The notes beneath the pieces were generated by a model, which saw only the letters and a program-made list of their open reading frames with translations, had not been told where the DNA came from and did not search any database. Source: a virus (lineage: Duplodnaviria > Caudoviricetes). Taken from it: a stretch of 33,333 nucleotides of DNA. Position numbers and translations under genes: made by a program. This document shows positions 2,122 through 31,222 of this stretch, one piece after another (the stretch's first letter is position 1; every line of letters begins with the position of its first letter). The stretch covers positions 1 to 33,333 of the IMG/VR virus record IMGVR_UViG_3300010011_000003; one strand, 5' to 3'.

Positions 2122-3090
2122 TCACGAAAACACCTTCGCGTCGCGGTACGCGATCACCGTTATTCCGAGCCGGTCGTGAATCACTCTCGCCAGGTCTGTT
2201 TCGCTTTCGATCATGAGGTTGACCTCGTTGCTGCGCACGAACCTTTGCAGTGTCTCGGCCTTCCACTCTGCAGCCTCGTTGCCGTCGAGAAAGCATGGCG
2301 ATAGGAGCAGTTCGCGGTATGTGATTCCGCGTTCGCAAAGCCAGCGTTCGGTCTCTTCTCTCGCGGCTTCTCCTCGCGCCGAAATCACCAATCGTACGGC
2401 GCGATAACGCGGCCTCTGCAGCAATGCGCCGCGCTCGCAAAGGACGCCGTCAACGTCTATCGCCGCATGGCTCATGATTGGCGAATTGAGTACATGCCAT
2501 TCGAGCCAGTGAGGCAGCGGATAGTGGCGCGCGATGAAATCGACGACCGGCGCGTGGCTGTAAACTGCTGCAGTCACGATCTTTGCTGACGGCCATGTTC
2601 TCCGCGCGCGAATCGCGGTCTTGAGTATGCTCCTCGCGCTGACAGACGTATCGTCAACGATTGCCACCCTACTTGGCGGCCTGTCGCCAAGACGAGAACT
2701 GCGAGTCCCGGTTCCGGCCCAGACGACCTGAGCGCCGCAGCCAACATACAGCGGAACGTGGAGCATGCAAGCGATCACTGACGCCGGGATTATACCGCTT
2801 CTCGCCACACCGACGATCGCGTCGCAATCGCTCAGCGAGTCGAGAAGCAGCGTGGCGTCTCTGACCAGGTCCGTGATTCTGACGAAGCTGTTGCTCGCTA
2901 CAGGTTGACCGATAACTGCTGGACCTCCTCCACCCAGATTGGCTGATAGGTGGCGACAGCGTCCTTTTGCGATCACATGCTGTTGGCGTCGCCGTCCGCG
3001 CTCTGAATCACCGTAGAGTGCGCACTCGCCGTCTCGTCGCCGGTGAGCGCAGAGATCGCAAATCACTTCTGGTTGATCTCGATCACTCAC
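2122..3090 (-). CDS. Phosphoribosyltransferase / HAD-like phosphatase fusion with Cys-containing N-terminus
   Basis: PRTase motifs AIVGVARSGIIPA and VAIVDDTSVS; HAD motif I AIDVDGVLC. Start reassigned to GTG 3090, overlapping the radical SAM stop (GTGA). Confidence 0.75.
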   Translation of the reverse strand: MSDRDQPEVICDLCAHRRRDGECALYGDSERGRRRQQHVIAKGRCRHLSANLGGGGPAVIGQPVASNSFVRITDLVRDATLLLDSLSDCDAIVGVARSGIIPASVIACMLHVPLYVGCGAQVVWAGTGTRSSRLGDRPPSRVAIVDDTSVSARSILKTAIRARRTWPSAKIVTAAVYSHAPVVDFIARHYPLPHWLEWHVLNSPIMSHAAIDVDGVLCERGALLQRPRYRAVRLVISARGEAAREETERWLCERGITYRELLLSPCFLDGNEAAEWKAETLQRFVRSNEVNLMIESETDLARVIHDRLGITVIAYRDAKVFS

Positions 3091-4337
3091 TGTCGCGACG
3101 CTTCGTTCTTTTGGCCGCCTGTTGAGCGCGAGCCGCACCGCTCGTCGCACTGCGATTGCGGTTGACAGCCGATGCGCTCGACGCTGGCTTGCGCGTTGTT
3201 GGGTCTCTTGCATTGGCATTTCTGATTCGTTTTTGGCTGAACCTGTCGCCACCAGTTTGGATTCTGTTTGCCGATTTGTTCGTCGATCCACTTCACGACT
3301 GGCAGCAAGCCACGCCTGAGCTTGCACCACGTCTGATCTGGTTTCGCTGGATTGCCGTTGACGGCGCGGTTGACGTGGTAGCAACCGCCGGCGCAGCCAG
3401 CCTTGGCTTCACATGAGTGACATTGCGTGAAGACTTCTGCTGTTGCGAAGTTCTTCTTGCATGTCTCAATCGCCTTCTGCGCACTTGGACCAGGCCGCAA
3501 TGGCTTGCCTTCGAGAACGTCCCAGACATGGCCGAAACACCAGTCAGACAGAACGTCGTCGGTGACGAAGCGGTGACACGCGAAGAACGCGCCGTCCTGT
3601 CTGAGCGCGAGAAGTGACTGGCCGGCGCCACAGCCTTTGGCTTGCTCTTTATCTGGAGTCCTGATCGCCGGGCCAAGTCGCGCGAACCAGTAGTTATAGA
3701 ATGGCGGTTTGCCGGCGCGGACGTCCTCGACTAGATCGCGCGCGATCAGCTTCATTTGTTCGACGAAGGCAGCAATCGACTCGTCTGACCAAGGCTTGTA
3801 ATTGTCCGGGATCGGCGTCCAGCCGCTGCCAAAGCCATTTTTCTTCAACCACAGCCAGCTGCGATAGAGCAGCGGTGCGGCATTCTCCGCGATCGTTGAG
3901 CGACGGGCGCGGCCCTTGTCCGCAAAAATTGGAGTTAGCTCGACATATTTCTCGCTGACGTCTGGTCGGTTGAGCGCACACGCCTGAGGACAGCCGTCGA
4001 TCGACCGTTGGACGCCAATCTTGTGCGCTCGCAGAAAGTCGCGGAGCGATTCGTCGCCGACGACTCCATTCGTGACGATCGAGTATCGCACGGAATCGCC
4101 AACCGTCGCGACGACCTTTTCGATTCCGTCTCGCGCCAGAAGAGGTTCGCCGCCGAAGAAGTTGAGCGTCTTGACGCCAAGTTTCTTCACGACCTCTGGA
4201 AGACAGGCGATCATTTCGTCCGAGATATCAGGCCGCCTGATCGCTGTCGGCTGATGCAGGTAGCAATAGCGACAGTTCAGGTTGCACCTATCAGTAACGT
4301 GGAGATCGAGAGTTGAAATCTGTTTGAGTTCAGTCAT
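3087..4337 (-). CDS. Radical SAM/SPASM domain protein (peptide/protein-modifying type)
   Basis: CNLNCRYC (CX3CX2C), FFGGEPLL, TNG, SIDG; SPASM GCGAG..ACHRF..CHSC-X5-CAGGC..WC. Start ATG 4337 overlaps the upstream stop (ATGA). Confidence 0.93.
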   Translation of the reverse strand: MTELKQISTLDLHVTDRCNLNCRYCYLHQPTAIRRPDISDEMIACLPEVVKKLGVKTLNFFGGEPLLARDGIEKVVATVGDSVRYSIVTNGVVGDESLRDFLRAHKIGVQRSIDGCPQACALNRPDVSEKYVELTPIFADKGRARRSTIAENAAPLLYRSWLWLKKNGFGSGWTPIPDNYKPWSDESIAAFVEQMKLIARDLVEDVRAGKPPFYNYWFARLGPAIRTPDKEQAKGCGAGQSLLALRQDGAFFACHRFVTDDVLSDWCFGHVWDVLEGKPLRPGPSAQKAIETCKKNFATAEVFTQCHSCEAKAGCAGGCYHVNRAVNGNPAKPDQTWCKLRRGLLPVVKWIDEQIGKQNPNWWRQVQPKTNQKCQCKRPNNAQASVERIGCQPQSQCDERCGSRSTGGQKNEASRQ

Positions 4338-6040
4338 GAGTTCGTTTCGCGATCGCAGTTTTCGCAACAACCGCCTTCGTAGTCACATGTTTGGCAGCAG
4401 TCCTGTGGATAGCATGGAACGTCGCTCTCGCAGGCATAGCAGCTCGGACAATCGACGTCACACTGATAGCACGCCGCACACGTTTCGTGATCGCAGTTTT
4501 CGCAGCAGCCTCCTTCGTAATCGCATGTCTGGCAGCAATCCTGTTGGCATGGACCAGCGATGTCGCCGTTGCACGGCTCCTGATCGCAGACCTGGCAACA
4601 GGTATCAGCGTCGCAGACCTCGCACGGCATGCAACCAGAATCGCATTCGCACGGATCGCATGGATCACAGCTATAGCAGGTTTGGCATTCCGTATCGCAC
4701 GTGTAGCAGCTCTGACAATCAGGCTCACAGCTATAGCACGTCGTGCATTGGTCGAGGTCACAGGTCTGACAGCAAGTGTCGGTTTCGCAGGAGTAGCACT
4801 GTGAGCATTCGGTGTCGCAATTGTAGCAGGTCTGACATTCGGTGTCGCACGTGCATTCAACGTCACAGAAGTAGCATGATTCGCAGAATAGGCACGTCGC
4901 GCAGTCTACGAAGCAACCACCTTCGTCGCAATAAGAACAGTGATCACCGTCGCAGAAGTAGCAGACGTCGATATCACACCATTCGCATTCAAGATCGCCG
5001 TCGCAATTCTGGCACGAGTCGCCGTCGCACGTACATGCGTCGGCGCTGCATGTATCTCCAGGTGAGTCGCAGCCACATTCGCTTGAACACTCGCCTGAAT
5101 CGCAGTTGCATTCTCTGAGACAGCTTCCGCAGTCGATCCGACAGCCGCCTTCTTCGCAGTTCTGGCACACGTCAACGTCGCAATAGAAGCAGACGTCTAC
5201 GTAGCACGTATTGCAATTAGTGTCGGTGTTGCAGCTGACGCAGGTGTCGCCGTCGCAATTGCATTGATCACCTTCGCAGTTGCACTCAACGTCACAGCTA
5301 CAATCACCAGTGCCGCATGTATCGCCGTCGCAATCGCAATCACCGGTGCAGCTATCAGTCGTGCATTCCTGATCGCAAGAGCCACTACATGAATCGTTGA
5401 ACGGTTCGCATGCTGAGCAATCGGCGCAATCGGCTGAGTTGCAAGGATCGCATGGATCGCACGACGTACACTGCTCGTCACACCTCACAATGAACCAGAG
5501 GATCCAGCCGCGGTGGCGAACGAATCGAGCGACCACCTTCGTTCCAGCTGGCACTGGTCCTCCAGGAAGCTGCACCCAGTCGGCAACGCGGCCGTACTCG
5601 TCTTTGATCGTGATCGTTCCATATTCTTTCGTCGAAATCGACGCTGAGCCGCAACAGCTCAAGCTCGATTGGAGTGTTCCTTCGACGATCCAGGCCTCAG
5701 GCGGAACCCAAATCTGAAAGCCGGATTCACCAAGAGGAATGCCGAACACGACGCCGCCCTTGCGGCAAATAGCAGCAAAGCCAATGGCGTCGTGAAGCGT
5801 GACCTCTGTATCGGAATCGACGACCCATTCGCCACTACGCAAGACGAGAGGGTTCGCCTTGGCTGATTTTATCTCTTCGCCTTCATTCTGTGGAAAATCC
5901 TCTTTGAGTTTGAATGGAATCAGCTCGAATCCATGGCCTGGAGTCCCGGCGCCAGACGACAACGATCCAACGAGTCGTCCTTCAACTTGTCTGACGACTC
6001 GCGAGATTCGTTGGATCGACCGCGACGATAACTTGGCCAT
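4334..6040 (-). CDS. Putative tail protein with a ~380-aa Cys/Asp/Glu-rich C-terminal region; probable radical SAM substrate
   Basis: Ordinary ~185-aa N-domain, then about 100 Cys (hand count) in CxxC-D/E units. Second gene after the tape measure and coupled to both neighbours. Confidence 0.8.
   Translation of the reverse strand: MAKLSSRSIQRISRVVRQVEGRLVGSLSSGAGTPGHGFELIPFKLKEDFPQNEGEEIKSAKANPLVLRSGEWVVDSDTEVTLHDAIGFAAICRKGGVVFGIPLGESGFQIWVPPEAWIVEGTLQSSLSCCGSASISTKEYGTITIKDEYGRVADWVQLPGGPVPAGTKVVARFVRHRGWILWFIVRCDEQCTSCDPCDPCNSADCADCSACEPFNDSCSGSCDQECTTDSCTGDCDCDGDTCGTGDCSCDVECNCEGDQCNCDGDTCVSCNTDTNCNTCYVDVCFYCDVDVCQNCEEGGCRIDCGSCLRECNCDSGECSSECGCDSPGDTCSADACTCDGDSCQNCDGDLECEWCDIDVCYFCDGDHCSYCDEGGCFVDCATCLFCESCYFCDVECTCDTECQTCYNCDTECSQCYSCETDTCCQTCDLDQCTTCYSCEPDCQSCYTCDTECQTCYSCDPCDPCECDSGCMPCEVCDADTCCQVCDQEPCNGDIAGPCQQDCCQTCDYEGGCCENCDHETCAACYQCDVDCPSCYACESDVPCYPQDCCQTCDYEGGCCENCDRETNS
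4352..4543 (-). repeat. 54-bp direct repeat encoding QDCCQTCDYEGGCCENCD twice
   Basis: Copies at 4352-4405 and 4490-4543 differ at 7 positions, all synonymous. Confidence 0.9.
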
Positions 6041-9108: not shown

Positions 9109-9289
9109 ACCAATCTTCCAGTTTCTTTCTCGCTCTTGCTGCTTTCACCGGGTCAACCTGCCATTCGAAGTTCAGCGGCACCGCATATCCGAGATCGACA
9201 AGCCACCACGCGGTGAGAGATTCGATCTCGTCGCCGACGCGAAGGCTTTGGCCCGGCACTTCGCGAATAATGCGAACGCGGTACTTCAT
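9050..9289 (-). CDS. Hypothetical protein (79 aa)
   Basis: ATGA-coupled to the tail tube gene. Confidence 0.55.
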   Translation of the reverse strand: MKYRVRIIREVPGQSLRVGDEIESLTAWWLVDLGYAVPLNFEWQVDPVKAARARKKLEDWYDSVTRGNRTIAVKTISRR

Positions 9290-9672
9290 GATCCTGACGG
9301 CCCCTGGACCTCAAAGGTGTACTCGCGCTTGAGAATGCCAGTCTTCTCGACGGTGATCTCGCCGGCTGTGCACGCCACGCATTCGTAGCTTTGCGATCCG
9401 ATCGTCACGGTGAACGTCTCGCCTGGGTCGAGCAGCTCCTCTGCGAGCGCGTCGAGAGCAGAATGCAACGTCGGATCATAGGCCACCCGCAGTTTGATCT
9501 GGCCATACGTGATTCGCGTTGGAATTTTCTGCGCGTAATCGGCCGAGTCATCGACGAGTTGCAGCTCCTCGACGTCTTGGCCGATCTGCGGATAGGTGAC
9601 AGATTCAACGTCCGATACCGTCGTCGTGTCAACCTGAACTGTCGTTCCTTTGCCTTTTACCGCCATGGTCAT
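9286..9672 (-). CDS. Major tail (tube) protein
   Basis: Position; KGTTV start, YGQIKLRVAYDP, C-terminal TFEVQGP. Confidence 0.7.
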   Translation of the reverse strand: MTMAVKGKGTTVQVDTTTVSDVESVTYPQIGQDVEELQLVDDSADYAQKIPTRITYGQIKLRVAYDPTLHSALDALAEELLDPGETFTVTIGSQSYECVACTAGEITVEKTGILKREYTFEVQGPSGS

Positions 9673-10175
9673 GCCCCTTTCTTTGCTTCGATCTTGGCTA
9701 CAGCCTCACGAATGACTCGCGCGATTTCAGCTGTGGCTTCTTCCGTAATTCGAGGACTGAATTGATCCATGAATCCTTTGAAATAAGGTTGTACTCGCCC
9801 GCGATTTTTGCCAGCCTTTGTCTGACGGTCAGTCGTACCCAAGACAAACCAGTGGACGTTGGCCTTGCCGATTCCAACGCCTGGTCGCGTCCTCTTCTTC
9901 GTTGCGCCGCGGCGTGTGGCTTTGCCGACTCCAAAGCCGATTTTTGCATGCTGCAATGTGCCGCGCTTGACCTTCAGCGAGTAGCCGATTCCAGTGGCTA
10001 CGCGGCTCCTCACACGCGGTGGCGCTGACCACGACTTAGCGCCGGCTTTAAGCTCGTTCCGAAACTTGCGCAGCACCGGCCGCAGCGCTGCGGCGAGCTT
10101 GCGGCCGCTGAGAAGCTGACTCAACTCGCCTAACTTCTGTCGCAATTGATTGGCGTCAACCTCGATTTCTAGCAT
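9669..10175 (-). CDS. HK97 gp10-like neck/tail-completion protein
   Basis: Basic protein with HWFVLGT..R..G...P..F motif. Confidence 0.7.
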   Translation of the reverse strand: MLEIEVDANQLRQKLGELSQLLSGRKLAAALRPVLRKFRNELKAGAKSWSAPPRVRSRVATGIGYSLKVKRGTLQHAKIGFGVGKATRRGATKKRTRPGVGIGKANVHWFVLGTTDRQTKAGKNRGRVQPYFKGFMDQFSPRITEEATAEIARVIREAVAKIEAKKGA

Positions 10176-10555
10176 TTCAAGACCGTGAAAGTGATCGTCA
10201 CGAAGTATGTCGGCTCAGACGATTCGCTATCGACCAGCAGCGCGCCTCGAGTCTCCGACTCGACGAAGAAACTCCACGTCGCGTTGCCTCCGTCGTCAAG
10301 GTCTTGCATGTCAAGTTCACGCAATTGGTCCGCAAGCTCGTCGGCTTCAGCGCGCGTTTCCGAGTAAACTGTCACGCTGACCGTGTACCTATCTGCGAAT
10401 GTTCCGTCTAATCCAGCGTCTGGAACGTTGGCTCCAACCGACACGACGACTGCTGGCAAATCATCACCGGGCGCAAGCTGATCAGGCCTGACTCGGTCGT
10501 TGACCGAGCTGCAGACCTTCATAACTGCAGTTCTGACTGCCTCATAGATCGTCAC
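10169..10555 (-). CDS. Tail terminator protein (DUF3168-like)
   Basis: RVRPDQLAP..LPAVVV..VSVTVYSETRAEADELADQLR; position. Confidence 0.75.
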   Translation of the reverse strand: MTIYEAVRTAVMKVCSSVNDRVRPDQLAPGDDLPAVVVSVGANVPDAGLDGTFADRYTVSVTVYSETRAEADELADQLRELDMQDLDDGGNATWSFFVESETRGALLVDSESSEPTYFVTITFTVLKC

Positions 10556-17050: not shown

Positions 17051-17291
17051 CGTATTTCTCAGCCAAGCATGGCCGTCGCAAGAGTTCGTCTCGCAGCTTT
17101 CCGATCGCAGACTCGACGCGCGCCGTCGAGGTATGCATTTTCTCAATGGTGGCCGTATTTTTTTCGATCACTTGGTTCGTTTCGCGTAGGACGCCAAGGA
17201 CCTGCTTCGTTAGCCACACGATCACGCCGACGAGGACGAAGCAGAGTCCCGCGAAACCGGCTTGTATGTATGGCGTAAATAACTCCGTCAT
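17034..17291 (-). CDS. Putative holin (one TM helix plus coiled coil)
   Basis: GFAGLCFVLVGVIVWL then heptads; next to a peptidase. Confidence 0.6.
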   Translation of the reverse strand: MTELFTPYIQAGFAGLCFVLVGVIVWLTKQVLGVLRETNQVIEKNTATIEKMHTSTARVESAIGKLRDELLRRPCLAEKYDAGAG

Positions 17292-18085
17292 TCTGCCCCT
17301 TCCGGATCAACGACGACGCGCACGGCCCAAGCGTCGGTGAATGGCGAATGTTTGAAGTAGCTTTCTGGGACGATTGCCATGCCGTTCACGCCCCAGTCCT
17401 TGCCCCAGGAGTTGACTACGGCCACGCCCCATGTCTTTCGCGATTCGTGGCAGGCCAAGCCGATGCCACACATGGCATGGCCACCGCCACCGCCGGTGTA
17501 GTCAGCCAGCCAGCCGTCGCTTTGAACGCGAAAATTACGCCCCACAAATACGCCAAGACAGACTGGAAACCCGCAGAGAATCGCACTCGCAACATGATCG
17601 AAACTCGGACAATCCCAAGCCTCAAGCACGCGAAACCGTGGCGCGTCTTTCTTCCAATCAGCTGGCCAACGCGATTGACGCCACGTGTACATGTCGATGA
17701 TCGACGCGCGACAGACGCCAATGACCTCCAAGGCCTTGATCGCGTCGCCAAGGACCGCGCCGGTATCGCTACCACCGTTGATGCGACCATAGAGATTGCC
17801 AGCAGAAAGACGAACGTACGGCGCGCCGGCAATCGCTCGCGCCACGTGGACCGCCTGAACGCTCGCGAATGCGCAGCATGCGTTCTGACCGTCCTGATCG
17901 AGAACCTCAGGGACGCAATGACCGAAGTCGATCGGCTTCCATTCGTCGCGCGGCCAGAGACGAGTCTTGCCGCGTTCGCCGAAGACGGGATAGACCTCGC
18001 CTCGGCCAGACTTTCTCGGAAGCCGCCCGAGGCGATAGGTCTTTCCGTCCTGCCCCGCCAGAACGAACTCAGAATCGTAGGTCAT
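17288..18085 (-). CDS. Papain-like (C1) cysteine peptidase
   Basis: VLDQDGQNACCAF (Gln/Cys), GGHAM (His), NSWG..WG..G (Asn). Start reassigned to MTYDSEF. Confidence 0.9.
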   Translation of the reverse strand: MTYDSEFVLAGQDGKTYRLGRLPRKSGRGEVYPVFGERGKTRLWPRDEWKPIDFGHCVPEVLDQDGQNACCAFASVQAVHVARAIAGAPYVRLSAGNLYGRINGGSDTGAVLGDAIKALEVIGVCRASIIDMYTWRQSRWPADWKKDAPRFRVLEAWDCPSFDHVASAILCGFPVCLGVFVGRNFRVQSDGWLADYTGGGGGHAMCGIGLACHESRKTWGVAVVNSWGKDWGVNGMAIVPESYFKHSPFTDAWAVRVVVDPEGAE

Positions 18086-18093
18086 TGCCCCGC

Positions 18094-18795
18094 CTACCTT
18101 CTGCGAATAAGCCACCGCCCGGTAGTCGGACAGGAGCCTGACGCGCATGATCCGCTCGACTGCGGTTGCGCCGGTTTCGACTGCGATTGCGGTGGCGAAG
18201 AACCCGCTGGTTCTTTTCTCTGCTCAACGACAGCCACGCCTAATCGGCGCAGCAGCGATTCAAAGTCTTCGCGTGTGTTCACTCTCGCTTCGATTATGGT
18301 CTTTCCGTTGGCGTCAAGACCAAACACCACGGGCAAACCTTTTGACTTCGCGGCGTCAATCAGCGGCGCGAGATCGCTCGGCTTCTCGCCTTTCTCGTCT
18401 TTTACGTCAACGTCAACAACTCTGAATGAAATCCGTCTCTGGCTGATCGCCTCGCGAATGGATTTGTCAATAAGCGCCGCAGCCTGCGATGGCTGCCGTG
18501 CCTCGCTCTCCTCGATCCAGATAAGCGATGAGAGCGTCGCAGGCTGTGGCGTCGGTCCAGGAGGAGGCTGAGGACCTGGAGGTTGCGGCGGCGAATTCCG
18601 CACCAGAGTCACGAACGAGAGGTCAGGCTGATTGTTGACAACTTCAATCAGCAGGAGGGTCGAATCGTCAACGAGAACAGCGCGACCAGTTGAACCTGTT
18701 CGCGCTGGATAATCGAACGGAGTGCGCAGCGCGATGTCAGCCGCGAATGCTGGCTGCACGAACAACAGCAGCCACACGACAGATCGGAGAATCAT
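18094..18795 (-). CDS. Exported protein with signal peptide, Pro-rich linker and thioredoxin-like domain lacking CxxC
   Basis: Signal peptide ending AFA; PPQPPGPQPPPGPTP; VVDVD..GLPVVFGLDANGK; C-terminal CASGSCP. Confidence 0.65.
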   Translation of the reverse strand: MILRSVVWLLLFVQPAFAADIALRTPFDYPARTGSTGRAVLVDDSTLLLIEVVNNQPDLSFVTLVRNSPPQPPGPQPPPGPTPQPATLSSLIWIEESEARQPSQAAALIDKSIREAISQRRISFRVVDVDVKDEKGEKPSDLAPLIDAAKSKGLPVVFGLDANGKTIIEARVNTREDFESLLRRLGVAVVEQRKEPAGSSPPQSQSKPAQPQSSGSCASGSCPTTGRWLIRRR

Positions 18796-19240: not shown

Positions 19241-19915
19241 TTAGGCATTCCGCCAACGCCAATAGACAAAATTATCCAGCGAACCCAGGTGCGCGAACTG
19301 CGGATCAAAGAGCGTGCACAAGCGCACGCTACGATACGATCCTTGGAGTTCTGCTACTTTGTCGTAATGACTTAGATAAGGAAGTTCGTTGGCGACGACG
19401 TAGGCCCAAACGTCCATCCAGGACCATGTCGCCAATGGCCACGATTCGTCCATAACAATGGTCTCATGTCTCTTGATCCGCCGCTTGCGGTTGCAACTCT
19501 CTTCGGCACGTAAGCCAACGAATGCGCGCCGATAACCACGACCCTTCAGTCGCGGAACGACGCGGCCAATAAATTCCGGCGCGAACACCGCCCAATCCGG
19601 ACGACCAGCTTCGTATTGTTCCGACGTGTAGATTTCCAAATTGACCGCACCCATTGCGATTGCATTTTGGACAATTTCATTCTCGATCTCACGCGGCATG
19701 AAGCCCGGACCATAATCCCAGTGGACGACCAGAATCTTCGGCGCTTGCTGCAAGACAAGGTGGAGCAGCACCATCGAGTCCTTGCCGCCGGAATAGGAGA
19801 CGTAACACCGCGCCTTCAACGCTTTGGCTATCTCGACACGCGACTGCTCCACCTTGGCGACATGCTCAGGCAGCCGCGCGTAAGCCATGAATGTCTCGCG
19901 CCATTCGTCCTTCAT
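19241..19915 (-). CDS. cysH: CysH-like (PAPS reductase family) protein of the type IV-B locus
   Basis: PP-loop SYSGGKDS, GLRAEES..R, PLATWSWMDVWAY. ATG 19915 overlaps the csf3 stop. Confidence 0.88.
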   Translation of the reverse strand: MKDEWRETFMAYARLPEHVAKVEQSRVEIAKALKARCYVSYSGGKDSMVLLHLVLQQAPKILVVHWDYGPGFMPREIENEIVQNAIAMGAVNLEIYTSEQYEAGRPDWAVFAPEFIGRVVPRLKGRGYRRAFVGLRAEESCNRKRRIKRHETIVMDESWPLATWSWMDVWAYVVANELPYLSHYDKVAELQGSYRSVRLCTLFDPQFAHLGSLDNFVYWRWRNA

Positions 19916-20559
19916 TTCAGCTTGACCTTCGCTCCTGGAGGAACGCACATGGCTACGTTCTGCGCCGCCCAAAATGGCGGCTTCCAAGCCAGCGGATAGG
20001 CGCACTCGTATTCGCGCGCAGCCTCCACAGGAATCGGCCGCATAGCCACGCCGTCGCGCGTGATCGACCAGTCGTGATCGATCTGCTCGATCCGCATTTG
20101 TTTGATTAGCCCCCAGCCCATGCGAATGTTGTCGCCAAGGTGGGTCAAATCAGCGAAGAGTTCTTCGAGGAGGTCTTTTCGACCATGCGCGTAGAACGTG
20201 ACTCGCAGTGACGGATTGTACACCCCGGCCAGTCGCCAGGCGCGAAAGTAGCCCGACGCGATGTCGAGCTTGCCGCGAGACATGAGATCAGGTTCTGGCC
20301 GCTTGACGTAATTCACCGCGCGATAATCTTCCTCCTCGAAAACGCCGATACTCGCGCACGGAATTCCGTTCTTGAGCGTGATCGTTCGCTTAAACTGCTT
20401 CTCGTCAATCGGCGTCGGCGTCTTGCTGTCGAATTGATTTGGATCGTTGGCGCGATGCCAGATCAAATGGCCGACGATTCCGTCCAAGTGAATCCAGCGG
20501 TGATTCAGCATGAGCGGAAACGCGAGATCGAATGTGATCTTCAGCGGCTTCGCCTTCAT
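19912..20559 (-). CDS. csf3: Type IV CRISPR-associated Csf3 (Cas5 group)
   Basis: IHLDGIV, SG.FRAW, VTFYAHG, LTHLG..MGWG.I Gly loop, MRPIP, WKPPFW. Confidence 0.85.
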   Translation of the reverse strand: MKAKPLKITFDLAFPLMLNHRWIHLDGIVGHLIWHRANDPNQFDSKTPTPIDEKQFKRTITLKNGIPCASIGVFEEEDYRAVNYVKRPEPDLMSRGKLDIASGYFRAWRLAGVYNPSLRVTFYAHGRKDLLEELFADLTHLGDNIRMGWGLIKQMRIEQIDHDWSITRDGVAMRPIPVEAAREYECAYPLAWKPPFWAAQNVAMCVPPGAKVKLK

Positions 20560-21356
20560 GCGATCTCCTTGATCAGGTCCTTGATTGCCTCCGCGCTCGC
20601 CGTCATATGCTCGACGTATGGCGAATCGTCAGGAACCTCCTGGTATTGCGGGTCGATTTCGCCGAAGCCTGAGGCCGAGCGCGCACCAATGAATGGCTTC
20701 TCACGCCACAGCTTGATCGCACGACCAATCGTCGCCACGGCCATGGCGTCTCGGTCGTTGACCTGGAAGTAGTGCCATAAGGTCGTTCCAGCCAGGAGGA
20801 CCTCAAAGTCCACCTTCATTTGGACGGCCTGATCGTCTTCTTCTCGCTCGCGGACTTCATCGCGGCGCGTGATGAACTCCTGACCGATCAACTCGCGAAT
20901 CGGCAGGAACTCGCCTTGCAACTCCGGCATGAGAACGCCAACCGTCTCCTGCGCGATCGGCACCGCATGACCGACGATCAGTTGGCCAGCAATAATCTGG
21001 TTGCCAATCGAGCAGCCCAGCAGGCGAATCAACGGAATGGTGTCGCGAAGCCGCGTCTTCATGTCGAGATCAATGCGGCCAGTCGATTCACCAAGTTCGA
21101 GGACGCCCCCGCTGGCCAGAATGTGCACCGCCTTCTTTGGCAACTCCTGAATGCCGCAGAGTTCGATCATGTCGCGAACGAGTAGACGGCGAATGACCCC
21201 GCGAATGGCATTGCCAGAAATGTACGGAATGCGAACACGCCGGCTGTCGCGCACGATCGTCACCGCGCGAAGCATGGGTGTCGATCCTGTCTTTTCGTCA
21301 CCGCCGTGGTGGAGTGCGCTCAAGACTCTGATTCGTCCTTCGATTCGCTTTGCCAC
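20556..21356 (-). CDS. csf2: Type IV CRISPR-associated Csf2 (Cas7 group)
   Basis: LSALHHG, IPYISGNAIRGVIRR, SGG.L, PLIRLLG, GQL.VG, IGARSASGFG. Confidence 0.9.
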   Translation of the reverse strand: MAKRIEGRIRVLSALHHGGDEKTGSTPMLRAVTIVRDSRRVRIPYISGNAIRGVIRRLLVRDMIELCGIQELPKKAVHILASGGVLELGESTGRIDLDMKTRLRDTIPLIRLLGCSIGNQIIAGQLIVGHAVPIAQETVGVLMPELQGEFLPIRELIGQEFITRRDEVREREEDDQAVQMKVDFEVLLAGTTLWHYFQVNDRDAMAVATIGRAIKLWREKPFIGARSASGFGEIDPQYQEVPDDSPYVEHMTASAEAIKDLIKEIA

Positions 21357-21685
21357 TGCTTTCTCCTTTCTGAGTATGAGACGGTACCAACGTGAATGTG
21401 ACGCGAGAGAATATAATCCAAGACCTCTTCGCGCTGAGCTTCAAGCTTCTCAATGAGTGGAATGCCCTTTTCCGGAATGCTCTGCAGCCCAAAGTAATTG
21501 CAGAGCTTTGAGACGAATTCCGCCACGTCGCGACATGAGCACGCGGCGCGAATTCTATGGTTCCACACGTCAACTGGATTGCGGAGCCGCAGCTTCTTCC
21601 AGTTGACGCGACCGGCGATGATTGCCAGCAGCTCGATCACGTCGCCAATAAATGGCAACGGCGAGTTTCCAATCGAGTCGGCCAT
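21320..21685 (-). CDS. cas11: Cas11-like small helical subunit
   Basis: Small alpha-helical ORF between csf1 and csf2; AGGAG RBS before ATG 21685; assignment mainly from synteny. Confidence 0.6.
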   Translation of the reverse strand: MADSIGNSPLPFIGDVIELLAIIAGRVNWKKLRLRNPVDVWNHRIRAACSCRDVAEFVSKLCNYFGLQSIPEKGIPLIEKLEAQREEVLDYILSRHIHVGTVSYSERRKQWQSESKDESES

Positions 21686-22262
21686 GGTATTTCTCCTGAA
21701 CTTGATCCAGAAAATCAGGCGACAATTTCTGATAACTTTTTGCTCCAAACGTGGCTTCCTGGACTTCCGACTTTGGAAGCACGAGCAGCTGCTCGATCAT
21801 GCTAGCCATTGTCTTCGTCTCGCGCCGTTCCAGGAAGACTGGCTTATCACAAAGATCGGTGTAGACGTAAATGCCGTTCATGTTTGGAGTTGTGACTGCG
21901 AACGGCCACGCGAGCCACGTGTGCTTTTGACCGCTGAACGTGAGTTGGACGCCTGTTGGCTCGTCACACTGGTCGATCAGCTTGCGGACCTTGTCCATGC
22001 CGTCGGTCTCGGCGTTGATCCAGGTGATTGCGCTGCGCGTCACGATCCAGGAGCGATTTCTGAATGGCTTGTGTTCGAGCGCCGCAAGGCAGCTCACGCA
22101 GAATCCGTCGCCATTGCGGAGTTGATAGGCACTGAGAAATGTCTTCGAGTCGCGCTCCATGCCGACGGTATGTCGGCCACACACGCGGCATGTGACAACT
22201 GTGCCGCAGTTGATCGGCTCGGAGTGATTGAACAGAAGATCACTAATCGTCAATGTATGCAT
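21570..22262 (-). CDS. csf1: Type IV Csf1 (Cas8-like) subunit
   Basis: Zn finger CRVCG..FCVSC, SGQKH.W; first gene of the csf cluster. Confidence 0.75.
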   Translation of the reverse strand: MHTLTISDLLFNHSEPINCGTVVTCRVCGRHTVGMERDSKTFLSAYQLRNGDGFCVSCLAALEHKPFRNRSWIVTRSAITWINAETDGMDKVRKLIDQCDEPTGVQLTFSGQKHTWLAWPFAVTTPNMNGIYVYTDLCDKPVFLERRETKTMASMIEQLLVLPKSEVQEATFGAKSYQKLSPDFLDQVQEKYHGRLDWKLAVAIYWRRDRAAGNHRRSRQLEEAAAPQSS

Positions 22263-30123: not shown

Positions 30124-30795
30124 TCAGGCGACACGCGCGCCGTCGGGCTGCCAGACAGCCTCCCACTCGGCACCCTTGTATTCGCCGTTCACGCCGTGGC
30201 GACGGAAGGCGCGATCTGCCAAGGCGATCTCCTCTTTGGTTGGCAGCGTCGCAAGCTCTTCGACAGACCAAGGCAACTCACGCTCGTTATGTTCGTAGGC
30301 CCGTCCATGATAGAATCGGACAATCTGCGTTTCGCGCTCGTTTTCTGGCGTCCAAGCCAGTTGGACCCAGCTCGCGTGCGGGTGCCGCTCCAGGCCGTGC
30401 GACTCGAAGACGATGGCCCGGAGAACGCCGACAAAATCGGCTGGTATCTCCTCCCAAGACCAAGGACCAGTTGCGCTCGGCGTCGGACGTGGCGCGATTT
30501 CGTCGAGCGACAGAAGCTCACACAGGCATTCGTCGAAGCGATCTTCGCGGAAATAGCGGTCGAAAACTGCCTCGACTTCCTCAATCTCGGCTAGATCAGG
30601 CATGACAGCCAAGTCTTCGCGGTACCACGGGCAGTTGTGATCTTGCCGCGTTCTCGCGAAGCGGACGACGCGCCGCCGACCGTCCAGCATTGCCAATTGG
30701 ACGAAGTAGTTGTCCTTGACGACGCCGCCGCTCAGGAGCCGGACAATGCGAACAACGCCCTCGAAATTGATTGGAATGCCTTGCCAAGTAATCAT
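30124..30795 (-). CDS. Hypothetical protein with two tandem copies of a ~90-aa domain
   Basis: GAGGAGG RBS; W..IP..F.GV.R / VQLA / VRF / HN / PW..E.LA..P occurs twice. Confidence 0.75.
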   Translation of the reverse strand: MITWQGIPINFEGVVRIVRLLSGGVVKDNYFVQLAMLDGRRRVVRFARTRQDHNCPWYREDLAVMPDLAEIEEVEAVFDRYFREDRFDECLCELLSLDEIAPRPTPSATGPWSWEEIPADFVGVLRAIVFESHGLERHPHASWVQLAWTPENERETQIVRFYHGRAYEHNERELPWSVEELATLPTKEEIALADRAFRRHGVNGEYKGAEWEAVWQPDGARVA

Positions 30796-31222
30796 GTTTT
30801 CGTCCTCCTCTGTCTCTGGTACGTTTACCTCTGGCGAAGCCTAACACGCATTCTCTGCTTAGTTACTCCCACTCATCAGGTTCGGTAGCAACCACTCTGT
30901 AGAATTCGTTTCCGTTCTCGTCGGCTACTACCCAGTCCACATCTGGATATTGCCCTCCCAGAAAATCTGCCATCTCGCATGCCTCCACGAAGGATGTAAA
31001 CCAACGATCCTCGTCACTGTAGAGCCAGCAGCCGTCCGTCTCGAAGTGGCCGTCTCTCACAACGAAAATCTGGTATCGTTTGCTCATTGGCGTCGCCATT
31101 GTTACTCCTCTTCTTCCAACGCCCTCGAAATTGATTGGAATGTCGTGCCACCTAATCATGTCTTCATCCTCCTCTGCGTACGGTACGTTTGTGCCTAGTG
31201 AACATTAACACGCCTTTTCCGC
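30753..31222. repeat. Diverged ~105-bp direct repeats (30753-30858 and 31117-31222)
   Basis: Shared CAACGCCCTCGAAATTGATTGGAATG..TAATCATGT..TCCTCCTCTG..GGTACGTTT..TAACACGC at a 364-bp offset. Confidence 0.9.
30863..31099 (-). CDS. Hypothetical acidic protein between the repeats
   Basis: GAGGAG RBS before ATG 31099; an in-frame upstream start at 31159 lies within the repeat copy. Confidence 0.6.
   Translation of the reverse strand: MATPMSKRYQIFVVRDGHFETDGCWLYSDEDRWFTSFVEACEMADFLGGQYPDVDWVVADENGNEFYRVVATEPDEWE

Follow-up and report, generated by a model that had tools for sequence, protein, structure and literature searches.

A phage clade of radical SAM/SPASM enzymes paired with acidic cysteine tracts: candidate thioether stapling of a predicted tail-tip protein

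Introduction

Does a phage staple one of its own tail proteins with thioether bonds? The question is raised by the virus record IMGVR_UViG_3300010011_000003 (Duplodnaviria; Caudoviricetes), a linear record of 33.3 kb that is 46% complete; its positions 1 to 33,333 are the whole stretch of DNA that was analysed, hereafter the window. Five linked genes on its minus strand encode, in succession, a tape measure protein, a 279-aa protein, a 568-aa protein with a long cysteine (Cys) tract, a radical S-adenosylmethionine (SAM)/SPASM enzyme and a fusion of phosphoribosyltransferase (PRTase) and HAD domains. A preliminary description of this DNA had noted that start/stop overlaps link all five genes, which is the case (in order, ATGA, TAATG, ATGA and GTGA at the four junctions), and had proposed that the enzyme cross-links the Cys tract by the chemistry of peptides made on the ribosome and modified after translation (RiPPs). 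We found that the enzyme belongs to a dedicated clade, that this clade is paired with Cys tracts on varied carriers, that tract and enzyme are absent together from phages that have the upstream tail gene and that the spacing of acidic residues in the tracts is specific to the clade. The explanation that we favour, and consider just probable, is that an enzyme devoid of a RiPP recognition element (RRE) staples Cys to Asp or Glu in a predicted tail-tip protein.

Radical SAM thioether stapling of protein substrates has a precedent in Archaea. According to the accessible part of Dieter et al. 2026 (PMC13692751), CrpC of Methanococcus voltae introduces ranthionine links in CrpA, an archaeal protein that is large, rich in Cys and marked by C-X-X-Q/D repeats. 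In the same source, CrpA is a 28.8-kDa cellular protein modified at CAVD, with up to four links on one fragment; the RRE of CrpC comprises residues 1-92, and its auxiliary clusters (AuxI and AuxII) are ligated by Cys 333, 352, 390, 393, 399, 403 and 422. QhpD, which has an RRE, is described there as making Cys-Asp and Cys-Glu links in the protein subunit QhpC. PapB, in the accessible part of PMC12373016, binds the leader of PapA through its RRE, installs six links in CXXXD motifs and needs an acid C-terminal to Cys, which it accepts from i+1 to i+7. A literature search covering titles and abstract openings, with few subscription journals, returned no report that a radical SAM enzyme modifies a structural protein of a phage, and the term 'phage' does not occur in the available portions of the text and supplements of PMC13692751. 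The earlier statement that no such case had been described holds for phages within that search, but for Archaea the stapling of a large Cys-rich protein (CrpC/CrpA) is published.

Results and discussion

An acidic cysteine tract with ordered spacing

The 568-aa protein contains 107 Cys, of which 104 lie in residues 187-568 (382 aa) together with 60 Asp, 30 Glu, 3 Arg and no Lys, for a net charge of -87. The earlier account of a stretch of about 380 aa with about 100 Cys, no Lys and more than 20 C-x-x-C-D/E units was thus accurate. We counted 28 C-x-x-C-[DE] units, against 6.7 expected from full shuffles and 13.6 expected when the Cys positions are kept (maximum of 24 in 2000 shuffles). Gaps of 3, 5 and 4 residues between Cys occur 42, 21 and 17 times.

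Expectations for the acidic residues were computed position by position with the Cys fixed. Asp or Glu stands at +3 from Cys (C-X2-[DE]) 45 times, against 20 expected (z 7.8), and at +1 43 times, against 32; it is avoided at +2 (6 against 31), and its enrichment at +4 (C-X3-[DE]) is weak (32 against 24-26, of which 26 is the value with the Cys fixed). An acid is found at +3 or +4 from 77 of the 104 Cys, where 42 are expected and the maximum in 2000 shuffles is 58. The typical unit, C-x-x-C-D-x-D/E, offers a PapB-type i+4 option to its first Cys and an i+3 option to its second. The PapB-like C-X3-D motif that had been pointed out is thus present, in the 28 units, but it is weakly enriched, and C-X2-[DE] is the stronger signal (C-X2-[D/E/N] across the clade). 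C-X3-D as the single motif was rejected on the +3 enrichment in the window tract and in the clade.

In the 15 tracts associated with the enzyme clade, Asp, Glu or Asn stands at +3 from 533 of 691 Cys (278 expected), compared with 22 of 211 (43 expected) in the 14 tracts of a CXXX-type phage clade; both counts take Cys that have no Cys at +3, and one locus (L266) was placed in the clade by score, not by the tree. Sister subclades use another Cys spacing (C-x-C combined with Glu, Asp or Asn; C-x-x-C pairs are scarce or missing in the tracts of L003, L004, L005 and L103) and retain the +3 rule. Kin share motifs, so this grammar is a contrast between two clades and not proof of co-evolution; it is the pattern expected of enzyme-specific substrate rules.

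The tract has grown through in-frame duplications and its length differs among relatives, the tract-bearing partner proteins ranging from 441 to 2078 aa in complete relatives. In blocks at least 70% identical to four relatives, changes at third codon positions dominate (e.g., 13/13/67 for the three positions when L086 is compared) and the Cys is conserved at 95 of 95 sites, although the selection of such blocks favours kept Cys. Both patterns indicate that the tract is coding and under constraint. An assembly artefact or a shadow frame as its origin was rejected on the codon-position pattern and on contigs of two studies that match this stretch (one of these studies may be the source sample). 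No NCBIfam model matched the tract, nor did the target-repeat model TIGR04114, whose control matched nowhere either.

A phage enzyme clade that lacks the RRE

The enzyme scores over the cut-off of PF04055 and carries the CX3CX2C motif at residues 18-25 (4263-4286), with Cys18, Cys22 and Cys25 kept in all complete rows of the clade; Arg111, Arg124 and Arg146 are kept in 26 of 26 rows. Seven SPASM Cys follow, at 236, 254, 306, 309, 315, 319 and 338 (3324-3632). The motif lies at median residue 17 in the clade, compared with 112 in RRE-bearing QhpD/SCIFF-like proteins, and the matching part of CteB begins at its residue 96, so the enzyme has no room for an RRE. The PqqD/RRE profile (PF05402) had no match in the 33-kb record; as this is 46% complete, a distant stand-alone RRE may be encoded outside it. 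The earlier claim that the enzyme lacks this N-terminal domain is confirmed. The enzyme is basic (isoelectric point, pI, 8.9), with a median pI of 8.8 in the clade (32 proteins) versus 6.2 for 43 QhpD/SCIFF-like matches.

Its NCBIfam scores, given as bits/cut-off, are 141/340 for PapB (NF047865), 111/453 for QhpD (TIGR03906), 102/519 for nif11, 85/425 for SCIFF (TIGR03974), 58/350 for TIGR04115, 42.8/349 for anSME (TIGR03942) and 27.8/525 for TIGR04463. Membership in the PapB, QhpD, SCIFF, TIGR04115, TIGR04463 and anSME families was rejected on these scores, and among the 40 open reading frames (ORFs) scanned there is neither a sulfatase gene nor a dehydrogenase gene. The nearest solved structure is CteB (PDB 5WGG, E 6.6e-50 with the clade profile).

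With fourteen database proteins the enzyme shares 50-93% identity, beyond which the figure falls to about 27%; a profile search of 1.84 billion representatives gave about two dozen further proteins at 200-334 bits. Profiles are needed to reach the relatives, as a scan of viral contigs with the single protein had no match. Among GenBank phages there is no close relative (35 records; the best among the matches listed is 22-27% identical over most of the length). GTDB genomes yielded two short contigs, both beginning inside the enzyme gene, so no host was assigned. In a tree of 65 hand-chosen rows (41 locus enzymes, 23 database proteins and the window enzyme), 33 rows, the window enzyme among them, form a single clade (100/100 support), apart from the QhpD/SCIFF-like proteins, and 15 rows form the second, CXXX-type phage clade (100/100).

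In one subclade, with L092 (4742-6003), L093 (1297-2647) and L094 (6459-7794), the enzyme gene breaks at a common point right ahead of the CX2CX5CX3C block, and the second part lies in another frame with its own ATG, which may correspond to a natural two-piece SPASM domain or to a programmed frameshift. P0125 is a clade enzyme with an intein and a LAGLIDADG domain inside its SPASM domain. In the second clade (L008-L078) the enzyme adjoins C-[Q/E]-x-x repeats that are attached to large domains, FN3 and Hoc-like/Ig among them (e.g., L012:3557-5719, L019:9163-10686, L026:3284-4393 and L032:9133-10065); in L026, Gln or Glu stands at +1 from 53 of 54 Cys. Some large phage contigs encode several Cys-repeat ORFs of differing grammar near one radical SAM gene (L043:139-2043 and 9225-10319; L027:15846-16787).

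Enzyme and tract occur, and are absent, together

Clade loci were those scoring at least 250 bits with the A2 profile. Removal of loci with an identical 90-aa stretch left 21 loci; L099 and L100, which begin inside the enzyme gene, were removed at this step. A dense tract, i.e., an ORF that reaches at least 12 Cys per 50 aa and lies no more than 3.5 kb from the enzyme, is present in 15 of the 21, upstream of the enzyme in all 15, adjacent to it in 14 and one gene off in L003. Four of the six misses have less than 400 nt of upstream DNA, among them L084 and L098, which have none, and L091, where 146 nt encode a short tail of Cys and Asp that is interrupted by changes of frame. In L096 a truncated ORF that is moderately rich in Cys lies upstream, separated from the enzyme by one more gene. 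The share of loci with a tract falls with similarity to the enzyme, from 37 of 52 at 150-250 bits to 24 of 58 and then to 3 of 47 below 100 bits.

The complementary comparison starts from the upstream gene. The family of the 279-aa protein occurs at 77 viral loci including the window; the enzyme profile matched none of the 76 others, and a dense Cys tract is found in 1 of the 36 with at least 3 kb downstream, in a set with many near-duplicates, whose closest member (66%) lacks DNA downstream. The co-occurrence search among phages that had been proposed earlier thus places a tract beside the clade enzyme far more often than in either comparison set (15/21 versus 1/36 and 3/47). In L085, L092 and L094 the order tape measure, gene of about 270 aa, carrier with tract, and enzyme recurs with a different carrier. 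The tail gene in that slot has three other viral loci, all incomplete records: L184 stops where the tract begins, L185 carries a Ser-rich tract in its place and L186 lacks one, and no clade enzyme was found in these three records. The carrier of L185 (8516-12002) is a post-tape-measure protein of a similar kind, in which a long Ser-rich tract replaces the Cys tract, with no radical SAM gene.

Residues 114-186 of the 568-aa protein form a module of about 70 aa that is common to phages with otherwise different tail genes. The recurrence of module, tract and enzyme behind different tail genes, together with their joint absence, leads to the conclusion that the three behave as a single portable unit. 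That the enzyme is dedicated to the Cys tract, as had been claimed, is strongly supported by co-occurrence, co-absence and clade grammar; its chemistry and the virion location of its partner are what we infer from the nearest characterised enzymes, which are thioether formers, and from the context described below.

The PRTase-HAD gene had also been counted as part of the cassette. It follows the enzyme in only three relatives (L083, L084 and L088, the homologue in L088 supporting the PRTase domain by a match to PF00156), and nine loci have other genes there; we therefore regard it as a variable passenger and rejected it as a core part. Glycosyltransferase genes adjoin the enzyme in L087, L090, L265 and L266, a hint that tail tips might also be glycosylated.

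A predicted place at the tail tip

The model of the 279-aa protein (predicted local distance difference test score, pLDDT, 90.5) has two domains; compared with baseplate, hub and tail-tip chains of the tail-tube type, both give Z scores of 4.7-6.2, all below the guide value of 8. The VIA Z scores are 6.2 for the 80alpha baseplate, 5.4 for the Mu and Pa193 baseplates, 5.2 for a pyocin hub and 5.0 for the T1 tail tip. Foldseek found no match to this model at E<=0.001, and comparison of the family with the same-slot gene of L085, L092 and L094 did not establish homology (hhalign probability of 4%).

Residues 1-113 of the 568-aa protein are homologous to a small protein (about 110-150 aa) encoded after the 279-aa gene in many enzyme-less phages; a profile of 19 such proteins matches them at E 2e-5 against 200 shuffles. 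The module that follows is a candidate anchor or enzyme-docking domain. Among the relatives, the tract is carried by a collagen tail fibre (L266, E 2e-24), by a baseplate-like F5/8 protein (L003) and by a LamG protein (L103), all beside tail genes, and the tract protein sits after the tape measure in L085, L092 and L094.

Candidate chemistry and its alternatives

The thioether reading draws on the nearest structure (CteB), on the best models (PapB, QhpD, nif11 and SCIFF) and on the seven SPASM Cys, which are spaced as in CrpC and CteB. By analogy with CteB, PapB, QhpD and CrpC, the enzyme would act late in infection: SAM would be cleaved at the main cluster, a tract Cys would be bound at an open auxiliary cluster and a hydrogen would be abstracted from the beta carbon of Asp or the gamma carbon of Glu. 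Sulfur-carbon links would then join Cys to Asp or Glu three or four places downstream, many per chain. Recognition would be leaderless and could rely on charge (basic enzyme, acidic tract), on the 70-aa module or on both, in place of the pair formed by RRE and leader. As the carboxylates would be retained, the product would be a rigid, polyanionic and reductant-proof appendage, incorporated at the tail tip through the N-domain, where staples may substitute for disulfides in an anoxic habitat.

Several observations weigh against this explanation. Of the 104 Cys in the tract, 42 are in C-x-x-C pairs, a classic metal-binding spacing, and in L005 and L103 the residue at +3 is mostly Asn, so that the acceptor would not always be acidic. 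The enzyme is below every NCBIfam cut-off, and an extra Cys267, kept in 24 of 26 clade rows, is a possible eighth ligand that could close the open site of the auxiliary cluster and imply another chemistry. The links that CrpC put on the CrpA fragment, in the available part of PMC13692751, are at most four, far below dozens. The pairing has exceptions: the 392 nt before the enzyme of L090 hold a non-Cys gene, and L006, whose 33.6-kb record contains no dense tract, is a genuine exception. Moreover, the clade loci are related to one another (L083 is the phage of the window, and L092/L093, L003/L007 and L005/L103 are close pairs), so 15 of 21 overstates independence and corresponds to about a dozen lineages. 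Pfam and PHROG scans assigned the N-domain to no family; its fold prediction reached a pLDDT of 37 and its Atlas matches stay under 0.9, with DUF2577 (0.77) a lead only. For this uncultured phage, the predicted virion location of the 568-aa protein is based on gene order and the carrier domains of relatives.

The most serious alternative, to which we give a minor share of probability, is that the enzyme acts on the tract in another way: it might join Cys to a Cys or Asn at +3, form alpha-carbon (sactionine-type) links, oxidise Cys as sulfatase maturases do, or act as an epimerase. It would fit the Cys, Asp or Glu found at +3 from 87 of the 104 Cys (so that Cys may also accept), the Asn of L005 and L103, Cys267 and the low family scores. 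However, the nearest structure and the four models with the highest scores all belong to enzymes that form thioethers or to close kin of these, anSME scoring lower, and Asp and Glu stand strictly after and not before Cys, which matches the PapB rule. Thioether modification of a product that is not part of the virion, cut off or acting inside the infected cell like a RiPP, appears improbable. In its favour are a virion location that is itself a prediction, the failed fold prediction of the N-domain and the papain-like peptidase also encoded in the window; against it, no transporter was found among the 40 ORFs scanned, the proteins that carry the tracts in the clade are of collagen fibre, baseplate, F5/8 and LamG type, the tracts lie in tail modules, and the gene is translationally coupled to those of the tape measure and the tail protein.

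Slightly more improbable still is an unmodified tract that binds metal (Zn, Fe or Fe-S) or forms a disulfide solenoid, the enzyme acting elsewhere nearby or helping metal loading. The C-x-x-C pairs and the five CxxCxxCxxxC strings of the tract are what such a protein might show, Asp/Asn ladders can be structural, and L006 and L090 are exceptions to the pairing. Yet the sister tracts with C-x-C spacing keep the +3 rule with few or no C-x-x-C pairs, the tract holds one ferredoxin-like CxxCxxCxxxCP and no CxxCH, and tract and enzyme are absent together. We regard a chance neighbourhood, with the enzyme an unrelated auxiliary gene, as very improbable: the variable slot after the enzyme (PRTase-HAD, glycosyltransferases) does show that passengers gather here, but the frequencies of pairing given above, the recurrence of module, tract and enzyme behind different tail genes and a grammar that follows the clade argue otherwise.

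In the record of L006, the exception, a 1657-aa protein encoded before the enzyme (L265:4764-9737) has about five C-x-x-C units in repeats of about 20 residues; it recalls the repeat region of CrpA and is possibly a sparser substrate.

Comparison with known systems

As proposed here, the phage system works like the PapB, QhpD and CrpC systems without being a member of any by score or RRE. With CrpC/CrpA (TIGR04463), as far as the accessible part of that source describes it, it shares the seven-Cys SPASM spacing and an adjoining large protein with C-terminal Cys repeats including C-X-X-Q/D; unlike CrpC, the phage enzyme has no RRE and scores poorly with the family model, and its tract has 104 Cys and lies in a tail module. 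PapB/PapA, the freyrasin ranthipeptide system as covered by the available text, gives the top family score and has in common with the phage pair C-X3-D/E (in 28 units) and an acceptor C-terminal to Cys, but the phage enzyme lacks the RRE, its predicted substrate is a 568-aa protein and not a short peptide, and the spacing of the clade is C-X2-[D/E/N]. More generally, a ranthipeptide precursor is short, with leader and core, which the 568-aa partner with its 382-aa tract does not match. CteB/SCIFF offers the nearest solved structure (CteB), and QhpD makes links of the kind proposed here, from Cys to Asp and Glu in a protein; both have an N-terminal RRE, and in the tree the phage clade stands apart. 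The CXXX-repeat maturases (TIGR04115/TIGR04114) also set a radical SAM/SPASM enzyme beside a Cys-repeat sequence; the enzyme scores far under their cut-off and Cys spacing in the phage tract is mostly 3 and 5, not 4.

A broader proposition, whose chances we put a little short of even, is that a phage-specific leaderless clade installs dozens of Cys-Asp/Glu/Asn thioethers (up to about 77 candidate sites here) in a portable tract on tail tips and fibres, giving a polyanionic, disulfide-free appendage held by covalent staples, that other phage clades do likewise with their own grammar, and that RiPP-type cross-linking is a widespread, undescribed form of virion maturation. If so, an enzymatic maturation step would be added to the assembly of phage particles, and radical SAM thioether chemistry would extend from short peptides and two cellular proteins (QhpC and CrpA) to parts of virions, at a link density far above those of PapA (six), QhpC (three) and the CrpA fragment (at most four seen). 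An enzyme that processes long tracts with neither RRE nor leader would be a useful tool for protein stapling and a test of substrate choice by auxiliary Fe-S clusters. Many unannotated phage radical SAM genes would also gain a testable purpose, given the 37 of 52 loci at 150-250 bits that adjoin Cys-rich ORFs.

Other features of the window and its phage

The features of the cassette are listed in Table 1. The virus is of siphophage type, and its minus strand carries a run of genes for terminase, portal, Clp protease, capsid, connectors, major tail protein, chaperone and tape measure. The best holders of this DNA are sequencing runs of anaerobic digester and bioreactor sludge from two studies; no RNA run is among the holders listed.

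Table 1. Position and supporting evidence of the cassette genes and of the parts of the 568-aa protein
Feature	Position	Strand	Support
Tail tape measure protein, 585 aa	6876-8633	-	PHROG 27166 (TMP) E 8.8e-30; Pfam TMP_2 E 3.4e-5
Predicted distal-tail/hub gene, 279 aa	6040-6879	-	Tail-tube-like domains predicted at residues 1-87 and 98-212
568-aa protein gene	4334-6040	-	Carrier, module and Cys tract
Carrier domain, residues 1-113 of the 568-aa protein	5702-6040	-	Profile match E 2e-5
Module of about 70 aa, residues 114-186	5483-5701	-	53-76% identity to L085, L094, L086
Acidic Cys tract, residues 187-568, predicted substrate	4334-5482	-	Composition, spacing
Radical SAM/SPASM enzyme, 416 aa from ATG at 4337	3087-4337	-	Pfam PF04055 E 3.6e-13
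PRTase + HAD/kinase-like fusion, 322 aa from GTG at 3090	2122-3090	-	NF002620 E 0.001; PHROG 415 E 4.9e-6

The papain-family (C1) peptidase mentioned above is encoded at 17288-18148 (E 6.6e-8), just upstream of the HNH and terminase genes. A type IV CRISPR effector operon occupies 19241-22262 on the minus strand, with genes for Csf1/Cas8 (E 5.7e-13), Cas11 (6.3e-23), Csf2/Cas7 (1.9e-61) and Csf3/Cas5 (5.3e-44), followed by a PAPS-reductase/CysH-like gene; its layout resembles that of type IV-B. Repeat and Rfam scans of the window found no CRISPR array beside it, and the Rfam scan had no match at all in the window. Two direct repeats of 106 nt (30753-30858 and 31117-31222) are 79% alike and 364 nt apart. 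Within a gene for a 153-aa protein, positions 2000-2080 have 10-20 times the depth of their flanks in three digester runs, with many loose ends, which we read as a piece common to other sequences in those samples. Finally, the LamG gene at 335-1207 shares only 32% identity with that of L083 (4306-5181), a phage nearly identical in other respects, where the flanking genes are 75-98% identical; it reads as a swapped, receptor-binding-like gene.

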